A DNA stretch of 64,000 bases from an uncultured archaeon (GCA_964583985.1 CAZOYD010000010.1:1-64000); one strand, 5' to 3'. Counted from the first letter of the stretch, positions 39,352 through 59,171 are shown. Made by a program: numbers and translations. Notes: generated by a model not told the origin, from the sequence alone.

Positions 39352-42315
39352 TTAAAAAGTCTGCCTAAATATATCCATTATAGATTGCCTACTCAGTCGT
39401 ATCAGTATGAAGTACATTCCTACAACACCAATAAGTATTGATATTGTAAACACTCTCAAAATGGCATCAACGGGTAGGATAAAATTAGCAGGAAGCTCTG
39501 TCATTAAGGCCATATTCGTTTCAAGCAAATAGCCACAATATGTGCCTATAAACGTGCCCATCGTTCCTGCTGATAATAATAATAAAAGACTTTCGATTAG
39601 AAACATATTTCGAACATTTCTAGTCTTCATGCCCATGCTTCTTAAGATGCCAATTTCAAATTTTCGCTCAAGCATGATCGCAAACATATTGCTAATTAGT
39701 CCAAAAATCGATATCATAACCGCAAACATCAAGATAATTTCCATCAATGTACTTTGACGCTCCATCATTCCAATCATAAAGTTTACTTTCGAAATCGCAT
39801 CATCAATTGAAAAACTTTTATCTTTATAGATTGTATTTATATCATCCATCGTTGATTCTATATTTTCTTCAGTATTTTCAATCAGATTGACAAATATCTT
39901 ATCAATGATCATATTTGGTTCTCTAGGATTATCTACCTTCATTAAATTAATATAATTATCTAAAGAAACTAAGATCCCACCACCATAAGCAGAAATTTCT
40001 GAACTTCTAAAATTCCAATAACCTGGCATTCCTCCACAGATCCCAACAACCCTAAAAAGCGAAATATTACCCGGATCATTTGGTATTTGAGGATTATAAA
40101 AATTTAATCGAACATATTCACCTACATCTTCAATTCCTAAAACTGATGCTATTGATTTTGCGATGATACAAGTGTTATTATTTTGAAAGATTTGACTAAA
40201 AGAATAATTAAACCCGCTATTGGGGCTACTCCAAATTATGAGATCTTTATCTACCACCTTGGTAAAATCTTCATCAATTCCAATAAATCCTGCTTCAATT
40301 TCATCAAAATTGGCGATATCTGCTGCAGTCACTTGGAACTTTGTTTCTGCTTGTCGAGCATAGAATTCAAAGATGTTTATAAAAACCTCATCTGTAGAGT
40401 CACCTCCAAACCCTATTCCTCCTTCTGATGATGAAAAAATTGTTGAAATCACAGAAGTCAAATCATATGTATTAAAAAGAGAGATCGCAATCGATTTAAT
40501 ACCTGGGAAGGATTGTAATTCTTCTGCCATATCAAGAGTCAAGGCGCTCTCCGGATCATAACCTTGGTTTGCTAGCACCAAATCTGAACCATACTGCATT
40601 TTCAAACTAGTTGACATGGTTACTGATTGCATTTCGGTAACACTCGTTATAAAAAAAATGAAACTGAAGGATATTGAAAACATTACTATGGTGCTTGTAT
40701 TTCTTCGTGTATATCTCTTTAAGGAAATCTTGACGATATTCCTATATTTTCTTATAAATGGTGAAATAATCGTTAAAAACACCCTTTGAATGATCGGTAT
40801 CATTCCTACTGAAGCGAATACAAGTCCAAGTAAAACTGCTGCTAGCATTCCTATAAATAGTCCAGCTAACATCATCATTCCCCCCGTTACCATTATTCTT
40901 GGTAATAAGACGAATACTATCATTCCTAACGTGGAAATTGATATTCCTATCAGAAAATTCTTTATGTTTATGCTTCCTTCTTTTTTGACTTCCCACCCCT
41001 CTTCTTTGGTATGAAAAGGTGTGATAGATTTTATCAAATCTTGTCTCGAGGTTTTCAGTGCTGGTATTAAAGCAATACAAAGAGAGGTAATTGATCCAAT
41101 AGATAATTCCAATGCAACAGTTTCTGGATTTATAACGAAATCTTCCATCAAAAAAGGAAAATTAGTCATGCTGAAAAGTACACTAACAATGGAAGGAGTG
41201 AAAATGATGCCTATTATTACTCCTATTATGGATCCCATTACTCCTAAAAGAAATCCCTCAAAAAGGACCATTTTTATTGGCATGCCTTTTCTACCTCCAA
41301 CAACGCGCATTATGCCAAACTCTCTCATTCTTTCTTCGATGGAAGTGGACAATATTGAATTAATTAGGATTCCTGTTATCAAGATAGAAAGAATTGTTAT
41401 AAACCAAAAGATGATTGTCATCATCACTAGCGTAAATTCACCACTAGATAATTCCTCTAATTTTGGCATCGTAACTGAATATGTATTAATGTCTAATCTT
41501 TCTTGAATTCGTGTTCCGATTTCTCGTAGACGAGTAGTGGTCTCATCCAAATTACTCACATCATATATAAATTGTGGATTTTCAATCGTGCCTACTATAA
41601 AATTAATTTCATCTGATCGTTGAAGAAATTCTTGTGCTTGTTCTAAGTTAACTAAGATCAAACTTGTTTCGAATTGGAAAAACTTTAGATCCTGTTCACA
41701 AATAGCAATGATTTCTAAATCTAAATTATATTGCTGATATTCTAAGTGAATAGTATCTCCTATTGAAACATTTAGTAGTTCTGCAACATTCCACAAAATA
41801 ACACATTCTCCATCATCAGGTTCCTTAATGTAAATCTCCCCGGTTTCAACTCCATTTTCATCGACGATTTTTAAATCTCCCAGCTTTCCACTGTTTGCTT
41901 CTTGAATGAAATTTAAACCATACATTTCAAGGGATCCGTTTGAATCTGTATTATCTGATGATGTTTTAACTACAGCCATAATCCTTGGAAAAAATTCATT
42001 GACACCCGAGATATCATGGAGTTCATTTTGAATGAGAGATTCATCAAAATAAGGGTCATATGTAATATCTGTTTGAGGAATTTTGGTGATCATAATATCA
42101 GCACTTCCAGTTGTAGTAGTTACTGAGTCGATATAATTATAACTCATGGTATCGTTAACCATTCCGATTGCAGTCAATAAAATGATTGAAATTGCAATTC
42201 CACCAATACCAAAAAATGCTTTGGCTTTATTACGCTTAAGATCAATCCATGAGTTTTTGATAAATTGTAAATTAATCTTCAGCTGAAATTTATACCAAAT
42301 TTCTCTTATGTTCAA
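39352..42315 (-). CDS. FtsX/MacB-family ABC permease with two internal repeats (permease 2)
   Basis: ERMREFGIMRVVG and ERKFEIGILRSMG coupling motifs, each after a large extracellular loop. Confidence 0.9.
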   Translation of the reverse strand: MNIREIWYKFQLKINLQFIKNSWIDLKRNKAKAFFGIGGIAISIILLTAIGMVNDTMSYNYIDSVTTTTGSADIMITKIPQTDITYDPYFDESLIQNELHDISGVNEFFPRIMAVVKTSSDNTDSNGSLEMYGLNFIQEANSGKLGDLKIVDENGVETGEIYIKEPDDGECVILWNVAELLNVSIGDTIHLEYQQYNLDLEIIAICEQDLKFFQFETSLILVNLEQAQEFLQRSDEINFIVGTIENPQFIYDVSNLDETTTRLREIGTRIQERLDINTYSVTMPKLEELSSGEFTLVMMTIIFWFITILSILITGILINSILSTSIEERMREFGIMRVVGGRKGMPIKMVLFEGFLLGVMGSIIGVIIGIIFTPSIVSVLFSMTNFPFLMEDFVINPETVALELSIGSITSLCIALIPALKTSRQDLIKSITPFHTKEEGWEVKKEGSINIKNFLIGISISTLGMIVFVLLPRIMVTGGMMMLAGLFIGMLAAVLLGLVFASVGMIPIIQRVFLTIISPFIRKYRNIVKISLKRYTRRNTSTIVMFSISFSFIFFITSVTEMQSVTMSTSLKMQYGSDLVLANQGYDPESALTLDMAEELQSFPGIKSIAISLFNTYDLTSVISTIFSSSEGGIGFGGDSTDEVFINIFEFYARQAETKFQVTAADIANFDEIEAGFIGIDEDFTKVVDKDLIIWSSPNSGFNYSFSQIFQNNNTCIIAKSIASVLGIEDVGEYVRLNFYNPQIPNDPGNISLFRVVGICGGMPGYWNFRSSEISAYGGGILVSLDNYINLMKVDNPREPNMIIDKIFVNLIENTEENIESTMDDINTIYKDKSFSIDDAISKVNFMIGMMERQSTLMEIILMFAVMISIFGLISNMFAIMLERKFEIGILRSMGMKTRNVRNMFLIESLLLLLSAGTMGTFIGTYCGYLLETNMALMTELPANFILPVDAILRVFTISILIGVVGMYFILIRLSRQSIMDIFRQTF

Positions 42316-42342
42316 TTTTTTTCCTTATTTTATCAAGTAATT

Positions 42343-45300
42343 CTAATCTAAAACACTAAATTTTTTATTCTTTTTATCATACTTTTTTAATATTTTTCCC
42401 TCTTTTGCTAAAATATCCATAATTTCTTGCTTCTCTCTTCTAACTAATCTTACTCCTTGACAAGTTTTGTTTTTACAGTAGTAATGCTCTCCAGGTTCAT
42501 CTTTAAAATACCATTTTCCACAATTCAAACAGTTATATGCGACAAATAACTGATCATGCTCGCAACTCGGACATATATAACTGTATCTATCAGCAGAAAA
42601 CCAAGATTTGCAGTATCTGCAATGAACTATTAAGGGTCTAGTTAATTCATCTGCTTCCATGACTTGAATCCTTTTAATTATCTGATCTTTATCAATGGAC
42701 TTTAGGCGTATTTTTTCAACATTATTAACTGTAAGCCGTTTATTCCACGTTCTTCCTTTTAAGAATATTATTAAACCAATTATGAATGCTACTCCAAAGA
42801 TAATTAACCAAGGTCCAAAAGTACGGAAATTGAAAATTCCATTTTGAATAGTTATGGTTATAGATTCTTCTATCCAATTTCCCTCTTTATCATAAGCAAT
42901 GACATTTATGTGGTGTATTCCATCATTATAAAAAGTTGTATCCCACTCATAGAGCAATAAGTTGGTACTGATATCATATGAAAAAGAGTTTCTACTTATA
43001 ACCTCACCATCAATATATAGAAAAATTTTTGCTAAATTTAACTCTACGTTATCCGTTATGTTGACTTTGATTGTAAATATGGAACCTATTAATTGGTCCT
43101 CTATAGGTGATAGGAAATTTATTGTGGGTTGTATGAAATCTGTTTTTTGATCATATCCAATATACATATTTGACAATAACCAGCCATAACCCAACCCTAT
43201 GGTATTATCATTTGACTCCAAAGCAAACATAATCATTACAATTTCATCTGAATATTGGGATAGGTCAATAGATTCATTACCAGAAAGAGTCTCATCATAG
43301 AAATATTCTTTTAATACTTCCCAATTATCACCATAATTTGTGGAGATTAAGACCACGCATTTATCCAACAAATCTCTATCCATGTAATATTCATTTTGGA
43401 GTGAGATTTCAAAAGAATATTGGAGAAACGTGGTATATTCATCTCTCAGTTGAATGGGCTTTGTGATTAATTCAATATTCCAATTTGGACCATAACCTTG
43501 TTCAAATCCACCATAACTCATTCCCAAGCCTCCATATAAATAATGCTTTCCCAATCTTGTTATTGGGTGCCAAGTATTATCTCCTTTTAACCAAGCCGTG
43601 TTTTCTTTTGGAGTTGGGACCCCATTTATATAAAAGTCATTTAAATTCTCATCAGAGAATTCATAACCAATTAATTTTTCACTATTAATGATATTGTATT
43701 CTAAAGCCATAGGAAACTCGAAAGAGAATAACTCATTATTACGATTATACCAAGGCGAGTGATACGTGAATTTACCATCAGAAACGTGAAATCTAAACGA
43801 TTTATTGTCATAATTTCCTAAAAATAAAGATTTAAGAAATAATATTCCTTCTCCTTCATTATGCTGAGAGCTCACATTCCAATCCCCATGTATATTAATC
43901 ATTGAATGATTCTCATTGCCAACTTCTAAATAAAGATACTCAGGATAATTATTATCTAAATCGTAATACCTACACATAATTAGAAATTGTTCATATTTTG
44001 AACCCTTGTTATTTGAAATGTCTCTACTTATATTAAAGTCGATGAAAGGTGTATAATAATTTGTTAAGTTAACCAATGAAAAGTAATCTAAAATTAAACC
44101 TTTATAATTAATAGGATCATATTGGTCATCAAGATTAGTAATAAATTGGAATTGTACAAAATTTCCTAAATATCTTGATAAATTTATACTTTCAATGAAC
44201 CAGTCGCTTTCTTCATTACTGTATGTTTTTATAGTCGTCCATCCCGTCCAATTAAGGTTAACCTGTAAATAAACATAATCTCCCGCATTTATACTCGTTC
44301 TCATTCCAAAATTCGCAAACGGTTGCGTATGATTTTCGTTTAGTCTTGTTAAATTAAATAAAGGACTGATTAATGTTCCATTCGGATATGGATTTGATAA
44401 AATATACGGTTGGTAAGTATAATTGGATGGAAAATGATGGTCTCTCCCAAAATACATACTTTCCCATTGAGTATCATATAACAATGAACGGTTATCTATT
44501 TGATTTGATTGAATTAAAAAATCCCATCCCGTTCCAATAATTGTCCAATTATTCCAACCATTATTGAAATAATGAGAATATGGTAATTGCTTGCTATCAT
44601 CGGGAAATTCCACTGTAATATTTAGAAACCCAATCTCCGGAAATCGTACGGTGTGCAAACCATCACTCGCTAAAAAAAAATAGTGAAATACTCCAGATGA
44701 CGGAAACTTAAGGTACTCCGTTTCAAAAAGCGCTCCATCTGTAAAATTGCTATCAAATTCATACAATTGAGACATTGAATAATTTAATGATGTTTCCATT
44801 ATTGATACGTACACTTCTTGTGGAGGAACATTTGAAACATCCATATCAAAATAATCAATATAAAAACGATAGCTATCTATTGAATAATTCTTATATGGAT
44901 TATATCCTAAATATTCTTGACGGGAAAGAATTGTTGCATTCTTTTGACCCCCCACGAAATTTATTAAAGGAACGCGCAATTCTGGAACGTGATTGTTATC
45001 AATCGTTGATATATTTAAAGTAAAAGTACTTTCACCACTGATTGCTTTTACAACTATTATGCATTCAGTTTGATTTGATTTTGGTGTAAAATAGAACGAG
45101 TCAAAATCACCATACCATTTTCTTGTTGATTCTAATAAGATCGGTTCTCCATTTACTTTTGACGAATTAACAAAGAGAAACATATCCAAATTTGAATTCT
45201 CATCTACATTTTTTAGCTTAAATTCATATTGTTTATCTTCATTGAGTAATATTCTACGAGCAAAAACATGATTACCTAAAGGATTTATTTTGGAACTGAC

Positions 45301-47112
45301 TACTGAATTTTGAATTGAAGAATTAACTGAAAGGTATTTTATTAAAGCCTCAGTAGCTGCTTGAATATTAACGCGCCCATAACCTTCATGAATATCTTTA
45401 ATAGTTGAGGGAATTCCTATATAAGAACTTGGTGAATATTGGCTTTCATCAATGACTGTTGAAGGGTTATCTTCTCTATTAAGATTTGTTTCTGAAGCAG
45501 TCATTAACAGTATTGCTTTTAATGATTTTGCTAATTGTGAGGTATTGCAAGCGCTCCAAGAACTCCAATCATTCCATCTCGCATCAATTAAAATATTTAT
45601 TGCAGCAGAGATTATTGCTGCTGAAATAGAAGTTCCTTGAGAACCAGTAACATGATCAGAATTTGCTTTAGCACTTATGATATTCCGATGTCCTGGTAAT
45701 TGACTCCCTCCTGGAGCGAGAATGTCTGGTTTAATAATATTTTCACCAATTAATTCTCCCATACTACTATAAGCAGCTACTTGATCCTTGTCATTTATTG
45801 CTCCTACAACAATAGCATTCTCACTAAGTGCTAATTTGTTAAGAGGACTTGATCCCTCGACGCCAGAATTTCCAGCTGCTATTACAACCACAATACCATT
45901 ATCTGCTACATCATTAATTGCTTTAGTAACTGCCATTATATCTTGACCTAAAGTCCCAATACTCAGGCAAGCAGACACTATTTTATTTGCATCTTTATTT
46001 TGTAAAACATTCCCTAATGCTGAGATCAGATCAGAAGTATACCCATAACCAGAATTGTTCAATATTTTATAAGAATGAATATTAGACGCGTTTGCTATCC
46101 CAGTGAAATGATTGAAATTGGGAATATAATTTTCTGGCAAAAAAGACGCATTTACATTATAATAAAATTTGGGATTTTTATTTAATTGCTTGTGATATTT
46201 CATGTACAAATCATAGATCCCCGTTCCGTACGTCGAAATTCGTTGAGAAAACTGATACATCGTGTTTTGCATTAGATTATGGGTCGAATTCACTAAAGTT
46301 GAATCGAAATATAATTCAAACCACACGTTATCTATTCCAAGTTCCTCCAGTTGCCAACTTGCCGATATGTTTATATTAGAACTTACAGGTGTGGCATTAA
46401 ATGATCCGATCTTAAAAGAATAATTTTTAGAGGGAATATATTCTTCGAATAGATCTAAATGAGAATAATTCGCTTCATATAATATTAAAGACGGATTTAC
46501 ACTATCATAATGATCAATTCCAGTGCCTGCTATAATTGAGGATATAAACGTACCATGACCGTTATTATCAGAAATAGGCGCTAAATCCACAAAATTATCA
46601 TAACCCGAAATTTTACCTTGCAAAAATTGTTGATTAGAATCAATTCCAGTATCTAAAACTGCTATTGAAGAACCCGTGTCTCCATTAAATCCATTTATGC
46701 TCCAAGTTGAATTAACAGCCCCTGATTGATATGAAGCATAATTTAATTGAGTTTCAATAATTTCATCTAATTCTATGTTGATGTCGTTAAACTCGGAAGC
46801 AAATGAAGAAATATTCTCAGCAGGCAACTTTCCGGCAAATCCTGAAATACTTTTAAACACATTGTTCCATTCTTCATTCTCCTTTAATTGACCTCCATAA
46901 AACTCGAATCTGGTTTTAATACTTGGATTAAAAGTTGATTGATTGAAAAATATTATGAGATCTGGCATGTTTGAGGTTGATAAATGAAGATTTCTCTTTT
47001 TTAATTCTGAAGTAGATTGAACAGAGATGTGCTGCGGGAATAGTAATTGAATTCCAAAAATTGAAAATATGAAAATTACTATGAAGAAAATCGTTTTATT
47101 TTTCACATTCAC
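42343..47112 (-). CDS. Membrane-anchored S8 (subtilisin-like) protease with multi-domain stalk and cytoplasmic double zinc ribbon
   Basis: Signal/anchor, I9-like prodomain, VLDTG, NGHGT, AAGNSG, KPDILAPG, GTS, GYGRVN; C-terminal TM then CRYC, CPSC, CLNC, CKNKTC. Confidence 0.88.
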   Translation of the reverse strand: MNVKNKTIFFIVIFIFSIFGIQLLFPQHISVQSTSELKKRNLHLSTSNMPDLIIFFNQSTFNPSIKTRFEFYGGQLKENEEWNNVFKSISGFAGKLPAENISSFASEFNDINIELDEIIETQLNYASYQSGAVNSTWSINGFNGDTGSSIAVLDTGIDSNQQFLQGKISGYDNFVDLAPISDNNGHGTFISSIIAGTGIDHYDSVNPSLILYEANYSHLDLFEEYIPSKNYSFKIGSFNATPVSSNINISASWQLEELGIDNVWFELYFDSTLVNSTHNLMQNTMYQFSQRISTYGTGIYDLYMKYHKQLNKNPKFYYNVNASFLPENYIPNFNHFTGIANASNIHSYKILNNSGYGYTSDLISALGNVLQNKDANKIVSACLSIGTLGQDIMAVTKAINDVADNGIVVVIAAGNSGVEGSSPLNKLALSENAIVVGAINDKDQVAAYSSMGELIGENIIKPDILAPGGSQLPGHRNIISAKANSDHVTGSQGTSISAAIISAAINILIDARWNDWSSWSACNTSQLAKSLKAILLMTASETNLNREDNPSTVIDESQYSPSSYIGIPSTIKDIHEGYGRVNIQAATEALIKYLSVNSSIQNSVVSSKINPLGNHVFARRILLNEDKQYEFKLKNVDENSNLDMFLFVNSSKVNGEPILLESTRKWYGDFDSFYFTPKSNQTECIIVVKAISGESTFTLNISTIDNNHVPELRVPLINFVGGQKNATILSRQEYLGYNPYKNYSIDSYRFYIDYFDMDVSNVPPQEVYVSIMETSLNYSMSQLYEFDSNFTDGALFETEYLKFPSSGVFHYFFLASDGLHTVRFPEIGFLNITVEFPDDSKQLPYSHYFNNGWNNWTIIGTGWDFLIQSNQIDNRSLLYDTQWESMYFGRDHHFPSNYTYQPYILSNPYPNGTLISPLFNLTRLNENHTQPFANFGMRTSINAGDYVYLQVNLNWTGWTTIKTYSNEESDWFIESINLSRYLGNFVQFQFITNLDDQYDPINYKGLILDYFSLVNLTNYYTPFIDFNISRDISNNKGSKYEQFLIMCRYYDLDNNYPEYLYLEVGNENHSMINIHGDWNVSSQHNEGEGILFLKSLFLGNYDNKSFRFHVSDGKFTYHSPWYNRNNELFSFEFPMALEYNIINSEKLIGYEFSDENLNDFYINGVPTPKENTAWLKGDNTWHPITRLGKHYLYGGLGMSYGGFEQGYGPNWNIELITKPIQLRDEYTTFLQYSFEISLQNEYYMDRDLLDKCVVLISTNYGDNWEVLKEYFYDETLSGNESIDLSQYSDEIVMIMFALESNDNTIGLGYGWLLSNMYIGYDQKTDFIQPTINFLSPIEDQLIGSIFTIKVNITDNVELNLAKIFLYIDGEVISRNSFSYDISTNLLLYEWDTTFYNDGIHHINVIAYDKEGNWIEESITITIQNGIFNFRTFGPWLIIFGVAFIIGLIIFLKGRTWNKRLTVNNVEKIRLKSIDKDQIIKRIQVMEADELTRPLIVHCRYCKSWFSADRYSYICPSCEHDQLFVAYNCLNCGKWYFKDEPGEHYYCKNKTCQGVRLVRREKQEIMDILAKEGKILKKYDKKNKKFSVLD

Positions 47113-50100
47113 TTTTCTTTTACTCCTCCCGATAATTGTGATTTAGTACCTCTTAACTCTTTTTTCTCATCTTCAGAAAGATTTAGGAAAAAATCATTTA
47201 ATGTTTTTTCTACCTTTAAAATCGTATCTAATCCTTTCATTCTGAATAGCAATTCTTCATTCCTCGCAATTTCATACTTTTTCAGGTTATATCTTCTTGA
47301 TTGATATAGATAGATTGCTAAAATCAACAGAGCTAACGCTGTAGGTATACCGATAAATAATATCTGAGTATGAATTGGAAAGATTATCTTAACTTCAACC
47401 GCGTTTGAAGTTACTTTTACTTGATGAATGTAATATAAATGAATGGTGGAAGGATTTAATTTTATAAGACTTTGACTCATGGCTTTGATTGCATATGAAT
47501 ACGTTTTGTTCTCGCCTGGATTGATTAAATCAATTTCATTTATCAACTTACCTTCAACTAAAGCAAAGTTAATTCTTGTAAAACTTGTAATGTCACTTAA
47601 ACTTAAACCTTTAACGCAAATATTTCCCGTATTTCTAACTATTAAAGTAACCACGAGAATATCCCCAATTTCGACTTGATTTTTATTAATGTTTTTAGTA
47701 ATGGTCAAATTGATACTTCCTAATATTACCGGTTCAGAATGAGAAATCTGTATTAAACGACTGTTATCACTATCAAAGTAATTAATGGGAGGATAGTAAT
47801 AACCATTCCACTCCAATTTTTTCAATGTGATATTATAAGAATAAATTTCATCATATTGGATGTTTGTAATGGTATGTCTTTCATTTTGAATAATTCTTAA
47901 AGCACCATAATTATCTTTAAGATTTAATGATAGCTTAGAGATATTCAATCTATTGGGACTAGTATTTTTTATCTCTACCGAAATATTAAAAATCTCACCG
48001 ATCATTGGATTATTAATGAGGGGATTAAAGAGAATTTGAATCGTATTAAGGAAGGGTTGAGTCTTCCCGTAATCAACTCTTGCGGTATAAAACACCTCAT
48101 TCGTACGAGTTATAATTGTGCGTGTATCTAAATTCTCAATTTTTTCTGTATTGTTATACTCGAGTCGTAAAGAATTTATAGTAGCAGAATTTGGAGTGTA
48201 AAATTCCATTTGAATTGTTTGCTGTTCTAGGGGTGCTAATTCGTCTAAATAGAAGTATAAGTGATTATCATATATAGAAAAATTAATATTATCATTTATT
48301 ATTCCTGGAAGAAGCATAGAAATATTAAGATCGTGGGCAATTTGGGAACCAACATTTTTAAAATGTAAAGTATAAGTATTAATTTCACCAATTTCAGTAT
48401 TATATTTTGAAATTTCAGCAAATGCTATGATCGACGCCATATCATAAGTACTTAATGAAATAGAATTAGAATATCTTACATATTGGACTTCTCCACTAGT
48501 AGTACTGTATATTACTCGTGATCTTGAAGCCTCATAATGATTTATGTCACGATAGGATAATTCGACTTCTAAATAATTTAAGCTAATATTGAAAGCGCTT
48601 GATTCTGATCCAATCAATCGTAAAACCATTGTGTGATTTATTCGAGATGGAGAATCAAAAAGCCATTCTAAAGATCCTTTATTTTTAATAAATGAATAAC
48701 GAGTTGTACCATTTTGTTGAGATTCAAAGTAAGATGAAATATCTTCAAATTGGCCACTTGAGAAATTAAATATTTCTAATCTTAACGAATTTTGTTGATC
48801 TGTTAAATTGATAAGAATTGATACGCGATCCAAAGATTTATTTTGATAATTGATGCGTGTCGTATTTTGAAATAGAAATTGTACTTCAATTTGGTGTTGG
48901 TCCACATATTTTTCTTCTGAAGATATATTCCAACTTTCATCATCAAGTCTCAATGCCATACTAGGATCAGTATCATCTAATGATGATCCTGAAATCATAT
49001 CAGGAAGTGGTGGATATGATTCATCAATTATGAAACTATAATTATAAAATGGTGTGAATGTATCAAATGCTTCGATTGAGAAGTTAGAATACACGTAAGA
49101 AATCCTTTCTCCTGGCTCTAAAATCCAATTATCATCGTTCCAAATACTATATTTATTGGTAAAGATATTTTTTAAATCATTTGAAGTGATCCCTAGAATT
49201 AATAAACCAGCAATTAATTGAGGATAACCAATACTTATGATATCAATGACATTATCCATTTTCTCATTATAAGGGAAATAATTTGATAGATTGCTCAAAT
49301 CTGGAAAATATGTATCCACTAATCCTGATCCCAAACTATCCATATAGAAAATTCTTGGATTTTCATCAAAATTGAAAAAATCTTCTAAGGAATCATATTG
49401 ACCTGAATATTCTACTTTTACAACATCCCATATTGCATCCATGAGTTCACCACCTAATGGACCACCAATTAAAGTGAACATTTCTTCAAGTCCTAAAGGA
49501 AATGAGGTTGGTACACCCCAAGCAGATTCATTACCTACATTCTTTACAGTTATATTAAAATCATAATTATTATATGCACCATATGAAGCGTTTCCGTTAA
49601 CTAAATCTTTGGTTATCATTAAATTTGGTTCTGAATTAGAAATCTTGTAATTTACAATAAAATCAGAAACAGGATTAAATAATCCTGTCATGATACCAGA
49701 AATACCTTGGAATCCAAGTTGAGGTAGAAAATTAATAATATCTAAGGAATCGTTTAGATTAATTGGCAATACGTAACTTCTTTTTATACCACCAAAATCA
49801 ACCCATACTAAATCAAAGGAATAATTTTTGAGTGATTGAATGTCAATATCAACATTTGAATAATATAGTAATAATCCAAGTTGTTCTAGTAAAAATTCAT
49901 ACAATTCAAAATAATTTGGAGTAGTATCAATTATATCAGAACATAATATTGATACATCAATATTACTTAAAAAAGCTCCTGCTAAAGCGATAAATATTTT
50001 GGCACTAGGTTTTAATTCATCTCCATTATAATCCATGGCATCCCACAAATTGAAAGAAAATTCATCATCTCCAATTTTTTGTATCGCATTTTCAATTCCT

Positions 50101-51020
50101 TCGTATTGGATCATAAGATTTGTATAATGAGAATTATTTGATAGAGATAGGCTACCAAAAAGATCAGAAAGCATCTCAAGACCAGTCTGATTTGTACCTA
50201 AAGTATCATTTAAACCTGAATATGTTTCAAATATATTCTCTAATTCAAGATTTTCTAAAAAACTTAGATCTAATGAATCCAAGTTAAAATTGACTTGGCT
50301 AGTTAAATCAAAAATATCTTTACTAAGAATATCAAGAGAATTTATCAAGAAATAAGTTGATGAAAGGTGATAATTTTCATTATATTCTTTTGAGGTTATC
50401 CGATCAATATCTAGAGCCTTCCAATATCCATCTTTTGGGAGATTTAATGTGATTTGATCGATATATACATTCCAGTCAGGAACATGTCCAATAAATGGAT
50501 AATAATTTGGTTTAGATACATTCAAAAGAATGAGATCGATTTGGAATTTTCTCCTAATGATCTCAAGAGCTCTCTCAGCTCTAATATCAGCATCAGTTGC
50601 GCTTATATCTTCATCATAATACAAAAACCCTGAAAATCCATTAAAACTCATTTCATATTGCATGCTAAATCCATCTTCTGTAAGTAATCTTGGAAATATA
50701 GCCGGAGTAATGCCATTTGAAACACTAATGAGCACATTACACTTATAGAACGCAGGATCTCGTGTATCAAACTGAGATAAAATGCTCGTATCATTAGTAA
50801 AAAGTGATTGCCTGATAATTGATTTATTTCCTGCCACATAAGCATCTATATTTTCAGAATACAGATCTGTTCCTGCGATATCTGATAATTTCAGCGTTTC
50901 AGTTCCATCTATTTCTTTACTATTAGATTCATTTATAATAGAGTTATCAAAATTAAAGTTAGGAGGGATACTAAAACAGATACAAATGATAAAAAATAAT
51001 CCTAATTTCCATGTTTTCAT
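47109..51020 (-). CDS. Large surface protein with DUF11/CARDB-like Ig repeats and C-terminal TM anchor
   Basis: Signal peptide; repeats ITKD..ITVKNVG, IGE..TYTL.FKNVG, IGE.F.ISVEIKN, ITK..IGD..VTL.VRNTG; many NxS/T sequons; TM near the end. Confidence 0.8.
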   Translation of the reverse strand: MKTWKLGLFFIICICFSIPPNFNFDNSIINESNSKEIDGTETLKLSDIAGTDLYSENIDAYVAGNKSIIRQSLFTNDTSILSQFDTRDPAFYKCNVLISVSNGITPAIFPRLLTEDGFSMQYEMSFNGFSGFLYYDEDISATDADIRAERALEIIRRKFQIDLILLNVSKPNYYPFIGHVPDWNVYIDQITLNLPKDGYWKALDIDRITSKEYNENYHLSSTYFLINSLDILSKDIFDLTSQVNFNLDSLDLSFLENLELENIFETYSGLNDTLGTNQTGLEMLSDLFGSLSLSNNSHYTNLMIQYEGIENAIQKIGDDEFSFNLWDAMDYNGDELKPSAKIFIALAGAFLSNIDVSILCSDIIDTTPNYFELYEFLLEQLGLLLYYSNVDIDIQSLKNYSFDLVWVDFGGIKRSYVLPINLNDSLDIINFLPQLGFQGISGIMTGLFNPVSDFIVNYKISNSEPNLMITKDLVNGNASYGAYNNYDFNITVKNVGNESAWGVPTSFPLGLEEMFTLIGGPLGGELMDAIWDVVKVEYSGQYDSLEDFFNFDENPRIFYMDSLGSGLVDTYFPDLSNLSNYFPYNEKMDNVIDIISIGYPQLIAGLLILGITSNDLKNIFTNKYSIWNDDNWILEPGERISYVYSNFSIEAFDTFTPFYNYSFIIDESYPPLPDMISGSSLDDTDPSMALRLDDESWNISSEEKYVDQHQIEVQFLFQNTTRINYQNKSLDRVSILINLTDQQNSLRLEIFNFSSGQFEDISSYFESQQNGTTRYSFIKNKGSLEWLFDSPSRINHTMVLRLIGSESSAFNISLNYLEVELSYRDINHYEASRSRVIYSTTSGEVQYVRYSNSISLSTYDMASIIAFAEISKYNTEIGEINTYTLHFKNVGSQIAHDLNISMLLPGIINDNINFSIYDNHLYFYLDELAPLEQQTIQMEFYTPNSATINSLRLEYNNTEKIENLDTRTIITRTNEVFYTARVDYGKTQPFLNTIQILFNPLINNPMIGEIFNISVEIKNTSPNRLNISKLSLNLKDNYGALRIIQNERHTITNIQYDEIYSYNITLKKLEWNGYYYPPINYFDSDNSRLIQISHSEPVILGSINLTITKNINKNQVEIGDILVVTLIVRNTGNICVKGLSLSDITSFTRINFALVEGKLINEIDLINPGENKTYSYAIKAMSQSLIKLNPSTIHLYYIHQVKVTSNAVEVKIIFPIHTQILFIGIPTALALLILAIYLYQSRRYNLKKYEIARNEELLFRMKGLDTILKVEKTLNDFFLNLSEDEKKELRGTKSQLSGGVKEK

Positions 51021-51036
51021 TTGTAATTCTTTCCTC

Positions 51037-54009
51037 TCACATTGTTTCTCTATAGATTTCTATTATTTTTTTCTTGCGAATTTTTCTTAATAAAAATACC
51101 ATGCTTATCAAAATGAATATTGTTGAAATAAAAAAGACAGATAAAGCATCTGAAAGTGGAAAATTTGTTGGTGTAGGTATGTTTCCCATTTCATTTAGAG
51201 ATGAAGCTAATAATAATCCTGTTGCATATCCAATAAGCACGCCTACTGAACCACTACTAAACATGATGATAAGTGCTTCAATAGTAAATAAACGATTTAT
51301 TTGTCTCCCTTTTAAACCTAACGTTCTAATAATACCAATATCTTTTTTTCTCTCAATAATTGAAGAATAAGACGATGAGATTAAACCAAACAAGCAGATA
51401 ATGATAGTAGCATCGAGTGTTATGGTAAAAAAAATATCTAATATTGAAAAATATGATTGTTCTTGACGGATGGAACTATCGAGGTTATCGAGATTAAAAT
51501 CGAATATACCTCTATAAGCATCCCAAATTGTCGCACCAATTGCTTGTTGGTAATCTAAACCCGTCTCAGTTAATTTTATAAAGACTTTATCTAAGTATGG
51601 AATGGGAGGAATATCCATTAAAGTCATGTACGTTTGGTCGTTAATCATTACTCCTCCTCTAAAAGCAGCCCCGCTTGATCTGCTAAATACAGAAGAAAAA
51701 CCAGGCATTGCTGTTGCTATTCCAACAATCCTAAAAGGATAAATTTCTGATTCATCGCCTCTATGTACTATAATTCTGATTAAATTTCCCATGTAGAGAT
51801 TTAAATTGATAGATATGGCTTCTGAGATTATACACGTGTAATCACCCTCAAGATTAAATAGATTATCAAATGAATCTATCAAGTTACCCCCAGTAAAATC
51901 AATATAATTCGTGTCAATAGTCGAAGGATATTCTTCATCGACTCCGATCAATGATATTTCTATCGTGGATAATCCAGCATAATCTCCAATTTCTGCATAA
52001 AATTCGTTTTCTTCATCAGAATATAATTGTGTCAAATGAAATGGACTGGCAATGATAGTTGATACTTTCTCTACTCCCTCAATTTGTAATATATCAGTTT
52101 TGAATTCACTTGTTAGAATTCTACTCGGATCAACAGAAAAACCATCAGTAAGCATCTTAAAAGATTCCCCAGAGAGCCCAAAACCTCCTCCAGTGTCTAT
52201 TTCCTCAAGATCTTCCCATCCAATTGTTTCAATAACTAAATCAGATCCTAAATCCAAGGTCGTTTCGATTTTCCCTTGATCTGATAAGAATTTAAATGCT
52301 CCAGAGACGAAAATAACAAACGAGAATGTAAAAGCAAACATCAAAATGGTGCTTGAATTCCTTCGAGCATAACGAAATACGAAAATTTTATAAATTGGAG
52401 CTAACTTTCTGGAGATTAATCTAAATGCTTGTATAAAAAAACGTAAGATGACTGGCATCAACCCTAATCCAGCAAGAGTAGTTCCGATTAAAAATAGAAT
52501 AAGTAACGCAATGAGAATACCCGCCATTAATGCGAGATCTCCGGTGATCATGACACGAGGTAATATTAATATAATAAATAAACCATTTGCTGCCAATATC
52601 AATCCAACGAGAATAATTTTATAATTAACTGACGCTCTTTTTTGAAGATGATAGAGGGTATCTTCATGTCTATAAGGATGAATAGATTCAATTAATTGAA
52701 GTTTCATTACTTTTATTGCTGGAGAAATACTCACGATCAATCCCACACCTATTCCTATTATATATGAAAGGATAACTGATCCCAACGTAATTGAGTAAGT
52801 CATGTTACCGGCTAATCCTGGTATGGATCCTGCAACGACCACTTCAGCAAAGGGTAATATCACAAATTGAGTCAGCAATTGTGCTCCTATAATCCCAAAT
52901 ATTGTCCCAAAATTACATAAAAGGAATCCTTGAACTATCACTATCATTAAATTATGGTTTTTTGTCGCACCAAGGGTTCGGAAAATTCCAAATTCTCGTA
53001 TTCTTTCCTCTACTGATGTTTTTAAAATACCATTAATAAGCACTCCAGATATAAGCATCGCAATCATGGATACAAATACGAAAATAATAGTTATTCCAAC
53101 GCTTAACCATTCTGAGAATCCTAGCACTCTCAGTTTAGGCAAATCCAAGAAATATTCATTGATGCCAATTTTCATTTGAATTTCACCCGCGAGATCTTTT
53201 ACCCTATTTTCAGTTCCCTTTAGATCTCTTACATCGTAATATTCTCCCGCATTTGTAAATGTTAGAATTAATTCATTACATTTTCCACCAAATGTGCCAT
53301 TACCAAATAAATCATATAGCGTGTCAATATCCACAACTATCAATGGTCGATCTGCATAATTAATAGGCCATTTCTGCTGAAAGTCAAATATTTTTGCTAT
53401 TGTGAAATTATGTGTCTTGTAATAAGTTACATCTCCATTCTGCATTCTCATGGCTATTTCAATGGTGTCATTTTCAACATATTTAATATCTTCGCTAAAC
53501 TTGTATAAGATAGCACATTCATTGATAGATAATTCTTTTATTTCCAAAAGGGCATTACTTTTTGGTTGAGTAAAGGCACCAAAACCTAGTGAATTTTCTA
53601 AATTAATATCAATTCCAGAAATTAACGCATTTGCCCTTTCATTTGTCAATTCTTGCGTTTCAAATCCTTGGGAAACGTTAATTTCCCCATATATTTCCAT
53701 TCTAGGAATAAATGCATCGATTTGAGGAAAATTTCCTTCAATTTTATTGACTAACGGATTGAATTCAAAATAATTTGAACGATTACTTGGTTCTCCATTA
53801 TAATGTCGAACTGAAATTGATATGTCTTGATTACCCGCATCAATTGATAAATATTGGGCAAATGTTACGGAGATTGAATCCGATAAAAATAGGACTATAG
53901 CTAAGAGGGCAATTGAGAAAAAAACCCCAAATATCCCTATTGATGTTCGGATTTTTTGACGTCCAAGATCCTTAAATGCATATTTGAAAATTATTTTAAA
54001 ATTCAGCAT
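51037..54009 (-). CDS. FtsX/MacB-family ABC permease with two internal repeats (permease 1)
   Basis: ERIREFGIFRTLG and ERKKDIGIIRTLG; same architecture as permease 2. Confidence 0.9.
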   Translation of the reverse strand: MLNFKIIFKYAFKDLGRQKIRTSIGIFGVFFSIALLAIVLFLSDSISVTFAQYLSIDAGNQDISISVRHYNGEPSNRSNYFEFNPLVNKIEGNFPQIDAFIPRMEIYGEINVSQGFETQELTNERANALISGIDINLENSLGFGAFTQPKSNALLEIKELSINECAILYKFSEDIKYVENDTIEIAMRMQNGDVTYYKTHNFTIAKIFDFQQKWPINYADRPLIVVDIDTLYDLFGNGTFGGKCNELILTFTNAGEYYDVRDLKGTENRVKDLAGEIQMKIGINEYFLDLPKLRVLGFSEWLSVGITIIFVFVSMIAMLISGVLINGILKTSVEERIREFGIFRTLGATKNHNLMIVIVQGFLLCNFGTIFGIIGAQLLTQFVILPFAEVVVAGSIPGLAGNMTYSITLGSVILSYIIGIGVGLIVSISPAIKVMKLQLIESIHPYRHEDTLYHLQKRASVNYKIILVGLILAANGLFIILILPRVMITGDLALMAGILIALLILFLIGTTLAGLGLMPVILRFFIQAFRLISRKLAPIYKIFVFRYARRNSSTILMFAFTFSFVIFVSGAFKFLSDQGKIETTLDLGSDLVIETIGWEDLEEIDTGGGFGLSGESFKMLTDGFSVDPSRILTSEFKTDILQIEGVEKVSTIIASPFHLTQLYSDEENEFYAEIGDYAGLSTIEISLIGVDEEYPSTIDTNYIDFTGGNLIDSFDNLFNLEGDYTCIISEAISINLNLYMGNLIRIIVHRGDESEIYPFRIVGIATAMPGFSSVFSRSSGAAFRGGVMINDQTYMTLMDIPPIPYLDKVFIKLTETGLDYQQAIGATIWDAYRGIFDFNLDNLDSSIRQEQSYFSILDIFFTITLDATIIICLFGLISSSYSSIIERKKDIGIIRTLGLKGRQINRLFTIEALIIMFSSGSVGVLIGYATGLLLASSLNEMGNIPTPTNFPLSDALSVFFISTIFILISMVFLLRKIRKKKIIEIYRETM

Positions 54010-54023
54010 AGATATTTATCCAA

Positions 54024-55211
54024 TTAATAAAGATTTAATACGTTTCCATCAACATTTCCATTCAAATTATTCTCTTTAACCAATTCTTGTAAAATATCGT
54101 TAAAATGTTCGGGTAAATTTAACAGAATAGCACTTGGAATGCTATTTTTAATATCTCCTACATCTATTGACGTTTTTCCTTGATGTGAAAAGAGATATTT
54201 AAATATCATGTTTTTACATTTTTCTTTGTTCATTTCTGCTTCTAATTTCCTATTGAGTTCCATCTGCTGAGTTTCTTTTAGTCCTCCAATTTTACCTTCC
54301 TTGGTTAATTTTCCATCTCTCATGTGAAATACGCGGTTTGCAAATTCTGAGACTGCTGCGTCATGACTCACTGCTATAAATGTTGCACCCTTACGATTCA
54401 AATCTCTTAATAAATTTAATATCATGACTCCTGTCTTACTATCAAGATCTCCTGTCGGCTCATCCAATACACAAAGTGCAGGATCATTTGCAAATGCTCG
54501 GGCTATTGCCACTCTCTGTTGTTCTCCCCCACTCAATTCTGAAGGTGTATGATGTGCGCGATCTTCTAACTCTACGAGTCTCAATAAATCTAACCCTCGT
54601 TTTCTCTTTCCTCTTCTACTTAATTTACCGGAAAAATGTAAAGGAACTAATACATTCTCCAAAGCAGTCATTTGCGGTAAAAGATTATAGAATTGAAAGA
54701 CAAAACCAATATTCTCTCTTCTGATATCTGCTAAATCATTATCTTTTAGGGTAGCGATGTTCCTTCCTTCAAGAAAAATCTTACCTCGTGTAGGTGTATC
54801 AAGACCCCCAATTAAATTTAAAAGTGTTGTTTTACCACTCCCACTAGGACCCATGATATCAACAAAATCACCTTTATCAATTGTTAAATCAACGCCACGT
54901 AGCGCAGCTACAGCTGTTGTTCCTAGTAAGTATGTTTTATGGAGATTTTCAACCACAATTAGATGTTCATAATCTTTATCAACGTCTTTTTGATTTTTAT
55001 CTTCTAATTTTACTCGATTTCTTTCCTCTCGTGATGTTGATAATATCTCAAATTTATGTTCCTTAATTTCTTGTCTTTTTTTCTTCTCTTGCCAATTATA
55101 AAAATTTTTACTAACTTTCCCCTTCCATATAGCAAGATTCCCCGTTTCTTCTTCATATAATTCCATTTCGGGTGTTTTAATAATATGGGCATCTGGCATT
55201 ACATTTACCAT
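54024..55211 (-). CDS. LolD/MacB-type ABC ATPase with N- and C-terminal extensions
   Basis: ALRGVDL, GPSGSGKT, IGFVFQFYNL, LSGGEQQRVAIARA, LDEPTGDLD, VSHD. Confidence 0.95.
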   Translation of the reverse strand: MVNVMPDAHIIKTPEMELYEEETGNLAIWKGKVSKNFYNWQEKKKRQEIKEHKFEILSTSREERNRVKLEDKNQKDVDKDYEHLIVVENLHKTYLLGTTAVAALRGVDLTIDKGDFVDIMGPSGSGKTTLLNLIGGLDTPTRGKIFLEGRNIATLKDNDLADIRRENIGFVFQFYNLLPQMTALENVLVPLHFSGKLSRRGKRKRGLDLLRLVELEDRAHHTPSELSGGEQQRVAIARAFANDPALCVLDEPTGDLDSKTGVMILNLLRDLNRKGATFIAVSHDAAVSEFANRVFHMRDGKLTKEGKIGGLKETQQMELNRKLEAEMNKEKCKNMIFKYLFSHQGKTSIDVGDIKNSIPSAILLNLPEHFNDILQELVKENNLNGNVDGNVLNLY

Positions 55212-55292
55212 GAAATTATTTAAAATTTTTTTAAAAAATTATAATGTTTTTAGGCATTTAATTTAATACCTTTGTGTTAGCATTAGCAAAAG

Positions 55293-56081
55293 TTAGGAAA
55301 ATTTTAAATCTTGAGATTCTATTTTTTTAGAACTTGCTTTTTCTTCATTAAAATCGAATTCATGTTCTTGAATATACTTTAAAGCTTTTAAACAGAAGTC
55401 TTTTTCAGCGTCTTTTCGTTTTTTATGGAAGTCTGAAGTAATTGAATGAGGAATAGAGTAAATTTCTTTTCCCATTATGTTCAAAATTCTAATTCCCTTG
55501 GCTTTCCATCTAATTTTATCTCCTTGTTCAAATTTTTCATATGAAAACTCAATATTGGGAGTAATTCTGAATTTTTCTTGGATATATTCGAGAAAATTAT
55601 TTTTTGCGAATTGAAAGCTTGTATCAATTATTTCATCCCAATTCTTCATAAATCTCGTAATAATTTTTTCATCCACCATATCCAAATTAAGATTAGAGTC
55701 TAAAAACAAAGCCCCACATATACTTTCAAAAACATCAGCCATAATGGACGTCCCAATAACCTCTTGATTGTTAGCTTTAAAAATGAACTCATTTAATCCC
55801 ATATTAGAAGCGATTTTTATCCAATTTTGATTGCTTTCTACACATAATTTATTTCGTGTTAAAGTGGCTGGGTCATTTGTTCCTTGATGATATATCTTTA
55901 ACGTAAATATTAATTTGAGAACGGCATCACCAATCGTTTCAAGAATCTCATAATGATTTGTGTTTGTTTTCTTACCAAGTTTTGGTGTTGTTAATGCTTG
56001 TTTAAGAAGGTTTAGATCATTGAATTGATAGTGAATATATTCTTGAAATTTGTTCAATTTTTCTGCAATTTCCTTTTCCAT
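55293..56081 (-). CDS. rnc: Ribonuclease III with C-terminal dsRBD-like domain
   Basis: LL.QALT, YEILETIGDAVL, ADVFESICGALFLD, AKNNFLEY.Q and KRKDAEKD.C..AL. Confidence 0.87.
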   Translation of the reverse strand: MEKEIAEKLNKFQEYIHYQFNDLNLLKQALTTPKLGKKTNTNHYEILETIGDAVLKLIFTLKIYHQGTNDPATLTRNKLCVESNQNWIKIASNMGLNEFIFKANNQEVIGTSIMADVFESICGALFLDSNLNLDMVDEKIITRFMKNWDEIIDTSFQFAKNNFLEYIQEKFRITPNIEFSYEKFEQGDKIRWKAKGIRILNIMGKEIYSIPHSITSDFHKKRKDAEKDFCLKALKYIQEHEFDFNEEKASSKKIESQDLKFS

Positions 56082-57708: not shown

Positions 57709-58449
57709 ATGAATGAGAAAAAGGATCAAATTGTAGTAATGGGTCATCGTGGAGCAAGCAAAGTAGCACCTGAGAATACTCTCCAATCTTTTAGGAAGGC
57801 AATTGAATTAAAAGCAGATTTTATTGAATTTGATGTTTTACAATCACGTGATGGAGAATTAGTGGTAACTCACGATGAAAACCTATCCCGCTTAACAGGG
57901 AAAAATAGATTGGTTAAAGAGATGACTTTAAAAGAATTGAAACAGTTGGATTTTGGAAACGGGGAAAAAATACCTACACTAAGTGAACTTATTGAAGTCA
58001 CTAAGGATCATATAAAATTGAACTGTGAAATTAAAGTTAAAGGGATTGCAAAGAAAATTATAGATTTATTTCGAGTTAAAAATATCGTTGATACTAGTAT
58101 CGTTAGCTCTTTTTTACATGATGAATTATTGGAATTTCAGTTAGAAGAACCTAATTTGAAATTAGCTTCATTAGAACCAACGCTAGGAGTAACTAAGTTC
58201 GATTGGAATATAAAAAAGAAGATGATTGATTATTGTATCGACAATAATTTATTTGCCATTAATCCAATAGTAATGCTTGTTGACCAACAATTTGTTGACT
58301 ATGCTCACGAAAATGAAATAAAAATTTTTCCTTGGACAGTAGATACAAAAATTTCAATAAAGAAATTAATAAATTTTGGTGTGGATGGAATAATCACGAA
58401 CGATATAGAAACAGTAAGAAATCTTTTGGAAAAATATAAAAAATTGTGA
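57709..58449 (+). CDS. Glycerophosphodiester phosphodiesterase, copy 1
   Basis: GHRGA...PENT, IEFDV..SRDG..VV.HD, IPTL.E, EIK, SSF, WTVD, GVDGIITN. Confidence 0.93.
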   Translation: MNEKKDQIVVMGHRGASKVAPENTLQSFRKAIELKADFIEFDVLQSRDGELVVTHDENLSRLTGKNRLVKEMTLKELKQLDFGNGEKIPTLSELIEVTKDHIKLNCEIKVKGIAKKIIDLFRVKNIVDTSIVSSFLHDELLEFQLEEPNLKLASLEPTLGVTKFDWNIKKKMIDYCIDNNLFAINPIVMLVDQQFVDYAHENEIKIFPWTVDTKISIKKLINFGVDGIITNDIETVRNLLEKYKKL

Positions 58450-59171
58450 CTAAAATGAAAGAGAAAATATTAGTTATAGGACATAAAGGAGCTAGTAACA
58501 TCGCTCCCGGAAACACTCTTTTGGCTTTTCGAAAAGCAATAGAACTTAAAGCAGATTATATCGAATTTGATATCCATAAATCCCTTGATGGAGAAATAGT
58601 CATTATACATGATAATGACACGTATAGTGTTACTGGAAAGCAAGGATTAATTAAGGAACTAACTTTAAAAGAAATACAAGGATTAGATGCGGGAAGTGGT
58701 GAAAAAATTCCAACTCTTATCGATCTAATTAAAATAGCAAAAGACAAGATAAATCTCCAACCAGAAATTAAAGCTCCTGGATTAATTGATGATCTTGTCC
58801 ATATTTTGATGAAAAATAAGTTGGAAAAAAAAACTATTATAAGCAGTTTTGATATTTCTCAATTAATAAAAATAAAAGAATGTGAACCTCGATTAAAAAT
58901 AGGTTATCTAATTCCTTCAGAATTAACCCGACCTCGAATATTAAATCGATACATACAAAAAGCAGTAAGAAATGAATTTTATGCAATTCATCCACATTTT
59001 ACAGCTATTAGTAAGGAATTTGTCGATAATGCTCATGAAAATAATCTTAAAATAAATGTATGGACTGTCAATGAAGAGGATGAAATTATTAGATTGAAAG
59101 CCTTAGGAGTAGATGGAATTATTACTGATGATATCGAGTTAGTTCATAAATTGTTAGGGAACTTACAGTAA
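58446..59171 (+). CDS. Glycerophosphodiester phosphodiesterase, copy 2
   Basis: GHKGA...PGNT, IEFDI, IHD, EIK, WTVN, GVDGIITD; start GTG 58446 (overlapping the upstream stop) or ATG 58455. Confidence 0.92.
   Translation: MTKMKEKILVIGHKGASNIAPGNTLLAFRKAIELKADYIEFDIHKSLDGEIVIIHDNDTYSVTGKQGLIKELTLKEIQGLDAGSGEKIPTLIDLIKIAKDKINLQPEIKAPGLIDDLVHILMKNKLEKKTIISSFDISQLIKIKECEPRLKIGYLIPSELTRPRILNRYIQKAVRNEFYAIHPHFTAISKEFVDNAHENNLKINVWTVNEEDEIIRLKALGVDGIITDDIELVHKLLGNLQ

Follow-up and report, generated by a model that had tools for sequence, protein, structure and literature searches.

Type VII ATP-binding cassette (ABC) engines that work together with hydrolases are already known, FtsEX among them; the permease FtsX is a single module of about 300 residues with four transmembrane (TM) helices that dimerises, and its partners bind through coiled coils. 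In Escherichia coli, the YbbAP-TesA system includes the permease YbbP, which binds two copies of the ATPase YbbA and one periplasmic hydrolase, TesA, in a 2:1:1 complex (PDB 9GE6-9GE8; PMC12646458). YbbP has 10 TM helices, large ectodomains between TM1 and TM2 and between TM7 and TM8, and a linker formed by TM5-6, and YbbAP hands substrates to TesA (PMC12646458). In this work we analyzed a locus of five genes from an uncultured archaeon of the order Lokiarchaeales, located in a stretch of 64,000 nucleotides (GCA_964583985.1, CAZOYD010000010.1:1-64000; the window from here on), where the genes of a type VII (MacB/FtsX-superfamily) ABC system flank those of a giant surface protein and a membrane-anchored subtilase. 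Literature searches combining Asgard with FtsX, MacB, LolC or mechanotransmission returned no description of such an operon, and the original prediction, which was made from the sequence of the window, knew of no described equivalent in Asgard archaea; nor was a description found, in the papers searched, of paired paralogous engines around anchored giant partners, of a serine-protease client, of a PIGT-like partner, or of an archaeal occurrence.

The five genes lie on the minus strand in the order ABC ATPase (54024..55211, 395 aa), permease 1 (51037..54009, 990 aa), a type I membrane protein of 1303 aa that we call the scaffold (47109..51020), an S8 pro-subtilase of 1589 aa (42343..47112), and permease 2 (39352..42315, 987 aa). 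When the open reading frames (ORFs) were re-derived, their common direction, order, sizes and gaps (14, 16, -4 and 27 nt by the ORF calls, for a total of about 16 kb) were all as predicted, and such gaps leave no intergenic space for further promoters inside the operon. According to Pfam, the ATPase carries ABC_tran, each permease carries two FtsX matches and MacB_PCD, the 1589-aa protein carries Peptidase_S8 (115.6 bits) and Big_7, and the 1303-aa protein carries DUF11, TRAP_beta and CARDB; the claim that two large, exported and membrane-anchored proteins are encoded inside the operon of a type VII ABC system is thus supported. We propose, with about even confidence, that the five genes form one operon encoding a cell-envelope complex specific to Lokiarchaeales, the formation of the complex itself being a prediction.

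The conservation of the locus was followed in four families, the one to which the window belongs (f1), f2, f3 and f4, all of the order Lokiarchaeales. Full-length orthologues of the protease are present in nearly all f1 genomes and also in f2 and f3, with identities from 80% down to about 30%. When about 19 kb around the protease orthologue were searched with the window proteins in 20 genomes of f1, f2 and f3, the order ATPase-permease 1-scaffold-protease-permease 2 on one strand was found in all 20 loci, one of them cut by a contig end. The two giant proteins diverge most in this set, down to 25-30% identity, followed by the permeases at 35-40% and the ATPase at about 59%, and the flanking genes (RNase III, a 141-aa ORF, Ham1 and S15) are retained within f1 only, being replaced in f2 and f3. 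A further 29 loci were seen with shorter flanks; permease 2 is directly downstream of the protease gene in 29 of 29, and the scaffold gene is directly upstream in each of the 27 where the upstream neighbour is visible, while a permease 1 orthologue occupies the same place in every locus long enough to reveal it. Given an order and strand conserved in 20 of 20 loci and neighbours conserved in 27 of 27 and 29 of 29, the arrangement is not due to chance. Besides the window, 44 distinct genomes have the conserved order as far as their contigs reach; the original prediction was to be abandoned if the genes were not linked in other genomes, and the linkage holds in these 44, which represent the four families. 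Intergenic distances are short or overlapping throughout; an overlap of 4 nt recurs at the scaffold/protease junction, and in f2 and f3 also at the protease/permease 2 junction. Exact protein look-up allowed us to name some of these loci: in Promethearchaeum syntrophicum MK-D1 the scaffold orthologue is DSAG12_01731 (WP_147662800.1), in Candidatus Lokiarchaeum ossiferum it is NEF87_004158, and Candidatus Harpocratesius repetitus is also among the named genomes.

Variant forms of the unit show which of its parts is constant. Three f4 genomes, from two genera, have a four-gene form with ATPase, permease 1, scaffold and permease 2, and no protease gene between the last two. Since the protease is absent there, the constant partner of the ABC genes is the 1303-aa scaffold, and the protease is, by this distribution, either an addition to the unit or a loss from it; the idea that the protease is a universal part of the machine was not borne out. 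Another genome of the same genus as the window (G233, 92% complete) yielded no protease orthologue, scaffold or permease 2 in searches with three of the five proteins, a result consistent with the loss or non-assembly of the whole unit. Other orders of Lokiarchaeia (G123, G126 and G124; loci L054-L056) have a split three-gene system and no giant genes: two permease genes of 458 and 546-665 aa match the N- and C-terminal halves of the window's permeases, and the ATPase has 236-237 aa. These split systems look like the unfused counterpart of the window's permeases. As a separate observation, in the f4 genus g22 (G278:C1:206000-225500, L061) a 990-aa gene similar to permease 2 is preceded, with a 4-nt overlap, by an unrelated ORF of 641 aa that occupies the place of the scaffold, an arrangement that could represent one more variant of the system.

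Permease 1 and permease 2 are paralogous over their full length, with 30% identity. Their FtsX stretches (PF02687), two in each protein, score 96.1 and 102.6 bits against a cut-off of 25.5, and MacB_PCD exceeds its cut-off of 27 in permease 2 (37.4 bits) and falls just under it in permease 1 (26.4 bits). Both proteins show the same hydropathy pattern, with TM1, an ectodomain of about 240 aa, TM2-4, TM5-6, TM7, an ectodomain of about 280 aa, and TM8-10; this pattern makes each permease a YbbP-type pseudo-dimer, duplicated internally, with about 10 predicted TM helices. A duplicated topology of this kind implies that each permease should be a complete engine with two copies of the ATPase, and the operon should then encode two complete type VII ABC engines that have one ATPase gene in common. 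The original prediction described the permeases as bracketing the two giant proteins; this is correct for their flanking positions, but they would be two engines rather than the two halves of one. By sequence the permeases belong to type VII but to no curated family, and the best models (ADOP duplicated permease, LolCE, MacB and FtsX) score far below their cut-offs. Among solved chains, the permease 2 profile matches MacB, YtrF and LolE/F/C, and YbbP was not matched at E <= 1e-3. A hidden Markov model search of 1.84 billion representatives gave 538 clusters at E <= 1e-30; many of these relatives are duplicated proteins of 880-1100 aa with 22-27% identity over the full length, and the named members include a Verrucomicrobiae bacterium and the eukaryote Naegleria lovaniensis. 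On these matches, the fused permease type is widespread. The Naegleria lovaniensis protein (P0221, 1343 aa, 225.8 bits) ranks within the 150 best relatives found for the duplicated permease and represents a type VII ABC permease in an amoeboflagellate, possibly of prokaryotic origin.

The core of the ATPase (residues ~85-305) is of the LolD/MacB/FtsE type (ABC_tran, E 8e-35). The best NCBIfam models are LolD, DarD, MacB and FtsE, the nearest being LolD with 236.5 bits against a cut-off of 307.75, and YbbA gives 186.6 bits against 336. Across 21 orthologues there is no variation in Walker A, the Q-loop, the signature (LSGGEQQR), Walker B or the H-loop, and by these motifs the ATPase is catalytically competent. 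An alignment of the orthologues delimits a C-terminal extension of about 95 aa (residues 301-395; 54027..54311, minus strand) that is conserved in f1-f3 and can still be recognised in f4, where it carries an insertion; it matches no Pfam family and is present only in the operon form, the split-system ATPases of 236-237 aa having no room for it. There is also an N-terminal extension (residues 1-85, about 85 aa; 54957-55211, minus strand), which is kept in the closer genera alone, is shorter or missing in genus g2, f2 and f3, and likewise matches no Pfam family.

The protease includes a signal peptide or anchor, a propeptide, a catalytic domain with a beta-sandwich insert, several beta domains, Big_7, a TM helix at about residues 1429-1456, and a cytoplasmic tail. 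The Asp-His-Ser triad, the oxyanion Asn and the subtilisin fold place it in S8, and D154, H186, N415 and S495 are invariant in 21 orthologues; the beta-sandwich insert separates the catalytic His from the oxyanion Asn, and the C-terminal two thirds are made of beta domains that resemble those of cell-envelope proteinases. Regarding the propeptide, pro-subtilisin and pro-Tk-subtilisin chains align from residue 1 of the model (residue 100 of the protein) into their propeptide regions, and a propeptide-like pattern was recognised by eye at residues ~50-120; the Pfam scan of the protease reported no match to Inhibitor_I9. Inspection by eye of the signal peptides of the protease and the scaffold gave no convincing lipobox. 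Judged by these features, the protein is a competent, anchored pro-protease. Its cytoplasmic tail (residues 1457-1589, about 130 aa; 42346..42744, minus strand) contains two predicted zinc ribbons, in which eight cysteines arranged as four CxxC-type pairs (C1498, C1501, C1514, C1517, C1528, C1531, C1546 and C1551) are invariant in 21 orthologues; zinc-ribbon Pfam families match this tail below threshold. Four giant S8 paralogues of 1700-1860 aa, from the same and related genomes, stand alone with no adjoining ABC genes, and they lack the zinc-ribbon tail, since they end soon after the TM helix or have no TM helix. A general link between subtilases and ABC genes was rejected on account of these four proteins, which, having neither ABC neighbours nor the tail, indicate that the operon protease is a specialised form. 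When the genome of the window was searched with the full protease sequence, the operon protease was the sole match.

The scaffold consists of a signal peptide, an alpha/beta region of about 600 aa, five to six beta-sandwich domains, a TM helix at about residues 1212-1241 and a cytoplasmic tail of about 60 aa. A confident predicted model of residues 23-1222 (mean predicted local distance difference test score, pLDDT, 83.9; predicted template modelling score, pTM, 0.76) shows an alpha/beta N-terminal half followed by beta-sandwiches; the description of this protein as an Ig-repeat surface protein is thus correct for the C-terminal half and fails for the N-terminal ~600 residues, which are mixed alpha/beta in the model. 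Foldseek searches with the model gave generic beta-sandwich matches only, and in an exhaustive VIA-align search three PIGT/Gpi16 chains of the glycosylphosphatidylinositol (GPI) transamidase ranked first. In that enzyme, PIGT has a rib-cage beta lobe, a beta-sandwich lobe and one TM helix, and acts as a platform that holds the anchored protease PIGK (PMC9098846). By this fold-level likeness, the scaffold has the same succession of a rib-cage lobe and a beta-sandwich lobe, followed by one TM helix. On this comparison, both are type I membrane proteins with a twisted beta rib cage accompanied by helices, both have a beta-sandwich, and both stand beside a membrane-anchored protease; in contrast with PIGT, the archaeal scaffold is more than twice as long and has extra beta-sandwich domains, and its neighbour is a serine protease of the S8 type instead of a C13 cysteine protease. 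Shorter matches to the N-terminal half (n=39, 46-88% identity) are mostly partial records or come from short contigs; relatives of this half were found only in sequences labelled as Asgard, from marine sediment or in unlabelled metagenomes, phmmer found no solved relative of it, and the ESM Atlas gave no usable match to the scaffold.

The last beta-sandwich before the TM helix of the scaffold (residues ~1104-1194; 47439..47711, minus strand) is the TRAP-beta/DUF11/CARDB-like domain matched by PF05753 (TRAP_beta). This match reaches 29.8-32.6 bits against a cut-off of 22.4, covers positions 19-108 of the 178 of the profile and about 90 of the 1303 residues, and is obtained with 22 of 22 scaffold orthologues (best E 2.2e-21); a profile of the domain also matches the solved TRAP-beta chain 8b6l_F at E 3.6e-4. 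The same stretch, or one that overlaps it (1082-1190), is also matched by DUF11, CARDB, BatD and DUF7507, and TRAP_beta exceeds its cut-off also in Methanosarcina acetivorans, used as a control genome. TRAP-beta (SSR2) has about 180 aa, with one lumenal domain, a TM helix and a short tail, an architecture that differs from that of the 1303-aa scaffold, whose gene, moreover, is within an ABC operon and away from translocon genes. The MK-D1 orthologue of the scaffold, DSAG12_01731, has been cited as a TRAP-beta homologue (PMC11284389), and another MK-D1 accession, WP_147662978.1, has been used as TRAP-beta (PMC11417166). The last beta-sandwich is the sole basis for the published label of DSAG12_01731, a protein whose size and operon make it implausible as a TRAP-beta orthologue. 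This amounts to a correction of the literature: the MK-D1 protein cited under the name TRAP-beta, claimed as a eukaryotic signature protein, is the product of the scaffold gene of the ABC operon.

Compared with the described systems, the locus finds its nearest precedent, by analogy, in YbbAP-TesA. The two have in common one gene for a LolD/MacB-type ATPase, the same 10-TM duplicated permease layout (deduced here from hydropathy), the gene of an extracytoplasmic hydrolase beside the transporter, and mechanotransmission as the proposed mode of action. They differ in that the operon has two paralogous permeases instead of one, and an ATPase extended at both its N and C termini; TesA is an SGNH esterase, small and soluble, whereas the partners here are an anchored scaffold of 1303 aa and, in most families, an anchored serine protease of 1589 aa, and the host is an archaeon with a single membrane. 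The resemblance to FtsEX, with its partners EnvC, PcsB, CwlO and RipC, resides in a type VII engine that controls an envelope hydrolase from the cytoplasm via an ectodomain. The permeases of the operon, of 987-990 aa, are in contrast 10-TM fusions of two modules with MacB_PCD ectodomains, their partners are TM-anchored and beta-rich, and the hydrolase here, a protease, brings its own propeptide and anchor; FtsX models give 31.1 bits where 255 and 225 are required and FtsE gives 210.3 bits where 264.85 is required, so that the FtsEX analogy put forward originally is sound as regards the type VII class and not in its detail, the permeases being duplicated 10-TM proteins of the YbbP type. For the ATPase and for each permease half, the best-scoring solved and curated relatives are LolCDE and MacB, and the MacB-type ectodomain is common to all of them. 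No equivalog cut-off is reached (lolCE 62.9 bits against 362.45; LolD 236.5 against 307.75), the operon has no gene for a partner of the LolA, MacA or TolC type, and its two permease halves are fused into one chain. With regard to the protease, the membrane-anchored convertases S1P and furin have a comparable type I anchoring; the beta-sandwich between the catalytic His and Asn, the double zinc-ribbon cytoplasmic tail and the fixed place inside an ABC operon distinguish the operon protease from Tk-SP, SpyCEP/ScpA, Vpr, S1P and furin.

By analogy with these systems, the complex probably couples the use of ATP in the cytoplasm to work on cell-surface proteins. The reading that we prefer, and to which we give an even chance, is that of a mechanotransmission complex in which the scaffold would be the core partner and the protease an added client. 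The protease gene is translationally coupled to the scaffold gene through the 4-nt overlap, and this coupling together with co-inheritance suggests that the gene products assemble. One ATPase would serve the two paralogous permeases, each with two MacB-type ectodomains; binding and hydrolysis of ATP in the cytoplasm would move the ectodomains, and these movements would work upon the scaffold, by way of which they would reach the protease or its substrates. Polypeptide substrates embedded in the membrane or close to it could be handed to the protease, or else the protease could be repositioned and gated. On the inside, two conserved parts are candidate points of contact or control, namely the protease tail with its double zinc ribbon and the extra domain at the C terminus of the ATPase. 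Taken as a whole, the original interpretation of the locus, an ATP-driven surface-processing complex, is partly supported.

Several results weigh against this proposal. A propeptide of the subtilisin type implies that the protease has its own activation route, and its sequence does not require activation by the ABC engines; besides, given that the protease is missing in f4, the role of a protease machine cannot be ancestral or universal. The count of 10 TM helices derives from hydropathy rather than from a structure, and sequence comparison brings the permeases no nearer to YbbP than to MacB, LolE or YtrF. As for the scaffold, its N-terminal half is PIGT-like, a rib cage plus beta-sandwich, at the level of a fold-level likeness given by one aligner on one model; PIGT is absent among the Foldseek matches listed (50 ranks, some omitted), and Gpi16 (PF04113) was matched neither in 22 scaffold orthologues at E <= 10 nor in a six-frame search of the genome.

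The same genes can be explained in other ways. The engines could serve the biogenesis or release of the giant proteins, inserting, folding, extracting or shedding their own operon neighbours into an amorphous protein coat, as LolCDE extracts lipoproteins. LolD and LolCE models do give the ATPase and the permeases their best scores, the giant proteins are both surface proteins anchored in the membrane, their genes are tightly coupled, and cultured Lokiarchaeales have been described with an amorphous protein coat and no S-layer lattice (10.1101/2025.11.06.686947; PMC11284389). However, each giant protein continues beyond its TM helix into a conserved cytoplasmic tail, with eight invariant Cys in that of the protease, which argues for permanent anchoring over extraction; all Lol family scores are far below the cut-offs, and no gene for a LolA-like acceptor is in or adjoining the operon. 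We consider this explanation unlikely. Slightly more doubtful still is the view that the genes have only their regulation in common, the protease being the main extracellular enzyme for feeding by peptide fermentation, the scaffold a protein for substrate binding or adhesion, and the transporter an unrelated efflux or defence pump for peptides, lipids or antimicrobials. MacB-family pumps are often exporters of drugs or peptides, which counts in its favour, as does the finding that the operon protease is the only match to its full sequence in the genome of the window. Lokiarchaeales have also been described as users of peptides and amino acids, and a solute-binding protein linked to oligopeptides dominates the MK-D1 glycoproteome (PMC11284389). 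Yet regulation alone rarely keeps an exact order of five genes with overlapping stop and start codons at 25-30% identity while the flanks change; moreover, the stand-alone giant subtilases of the same genomes have neither ABC neighbours nor the zinc-ribbon tail, and f4 keeps the scaffold between the permeases without any protease.

A signalling role of the BceAB type would assign to the ectodomains and the giant ectoproteins the sensing of a surface event (a substrate, a cell contact or a partner cell), relayed inward via the zinc-ribbon tail and the C-terminal domain of the ATPase, with proteolysis as output or trigger. The 10-TM topology is common to BceB, which signals via a partner kinase (PMC12646458), and both the cytoplasmic double zinc ribbon, which is invariant, and the extra ATPase domain, which is conserved, would fit this role; but the conserved unit neither contains nor adjoins a gene for a kinase, response regulator or transcription factor, and the ATPase extension and the protease tail match no recognised signalling or DNA-binding family. 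We hold this role to be improbable. Just as small a probability is given to the view that the scaffold is a true, very distant relative of PIGT and the operon a prokaryotic forerunner of the protein-processing complexes of the endoplasmic reticulum (ER) lumen. Under such an ancestry, the scaffold would be a membrane platform holding the anchored protease over the membrane, where surface proteins would be cut or re-attached at a fixed height, and the type VII ABC engines would power and feed the platform by pulling substrates or lipid from the membrane.

The neighbours of the operon are housekeeping genes: RNase III is 5' of it on the same strand, and on the 3' side are the convergent Ham1 gene and the genes of the ribosomal proteins S15 and S3Ae. 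These ribosomal proteins, together with a G+C content of 30% and the names that the nearest database proteins carry, assign the window to Lokiarchaeota/Promethearchaeota. The RNase III is of the bacterial type (Pfam Ribonuclease_3; 55293-56081, minus strand) and ends 81 nt upstream of the operon. It was tried as a sixth member of the operon and dropped, since its upstream position is kept within f1 only and it is absent from the f2 and f3 loci. The AT-rich spacer of 81 nt between it and the ATPase gene (55212..55292, minus strand) has TATA-like words in an A/T-rich stretch about 25-35 nt 5' of the ATPase ATG; it is a likely promoter region, an assignment that is weak and merely suggestive in a genome with 30% G+C. 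Farther away, at 57709-59171 on the plus strand, there are two tandem genes for glycerophosphodiester phosphodiesterases (246 and 241 aa), the stop codon of one overlapping the start codon of the next.

To our knowledge, the only cultured close relatives of eukaryotes with which cell biology is done belong to the Lokiarchaeales. No S-layer covers these cells, whose surface is an undefined protein coat, and the operon described here is among their largest conserved units of surface genes; it is present in both P. syntrophicum and L. ossiferum, and is hence directly testable in culture. If the PIGT-like fold of the scaffold reflects ancestry, it would bear on the origin of the ER-lumenal processing machinery, add new eukaryote-like membrane machinery to the Asgard archaea and replace the TRAP-beta reading of DSAG12_01731. 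The mechanotransmission complex that we propose, if true, would extend the idea of a type VII ABC engine acting with a hydrolase, known from FtsEX and YbbAP-TesA, to archaea, to proteases and to membrane-anchored partners.

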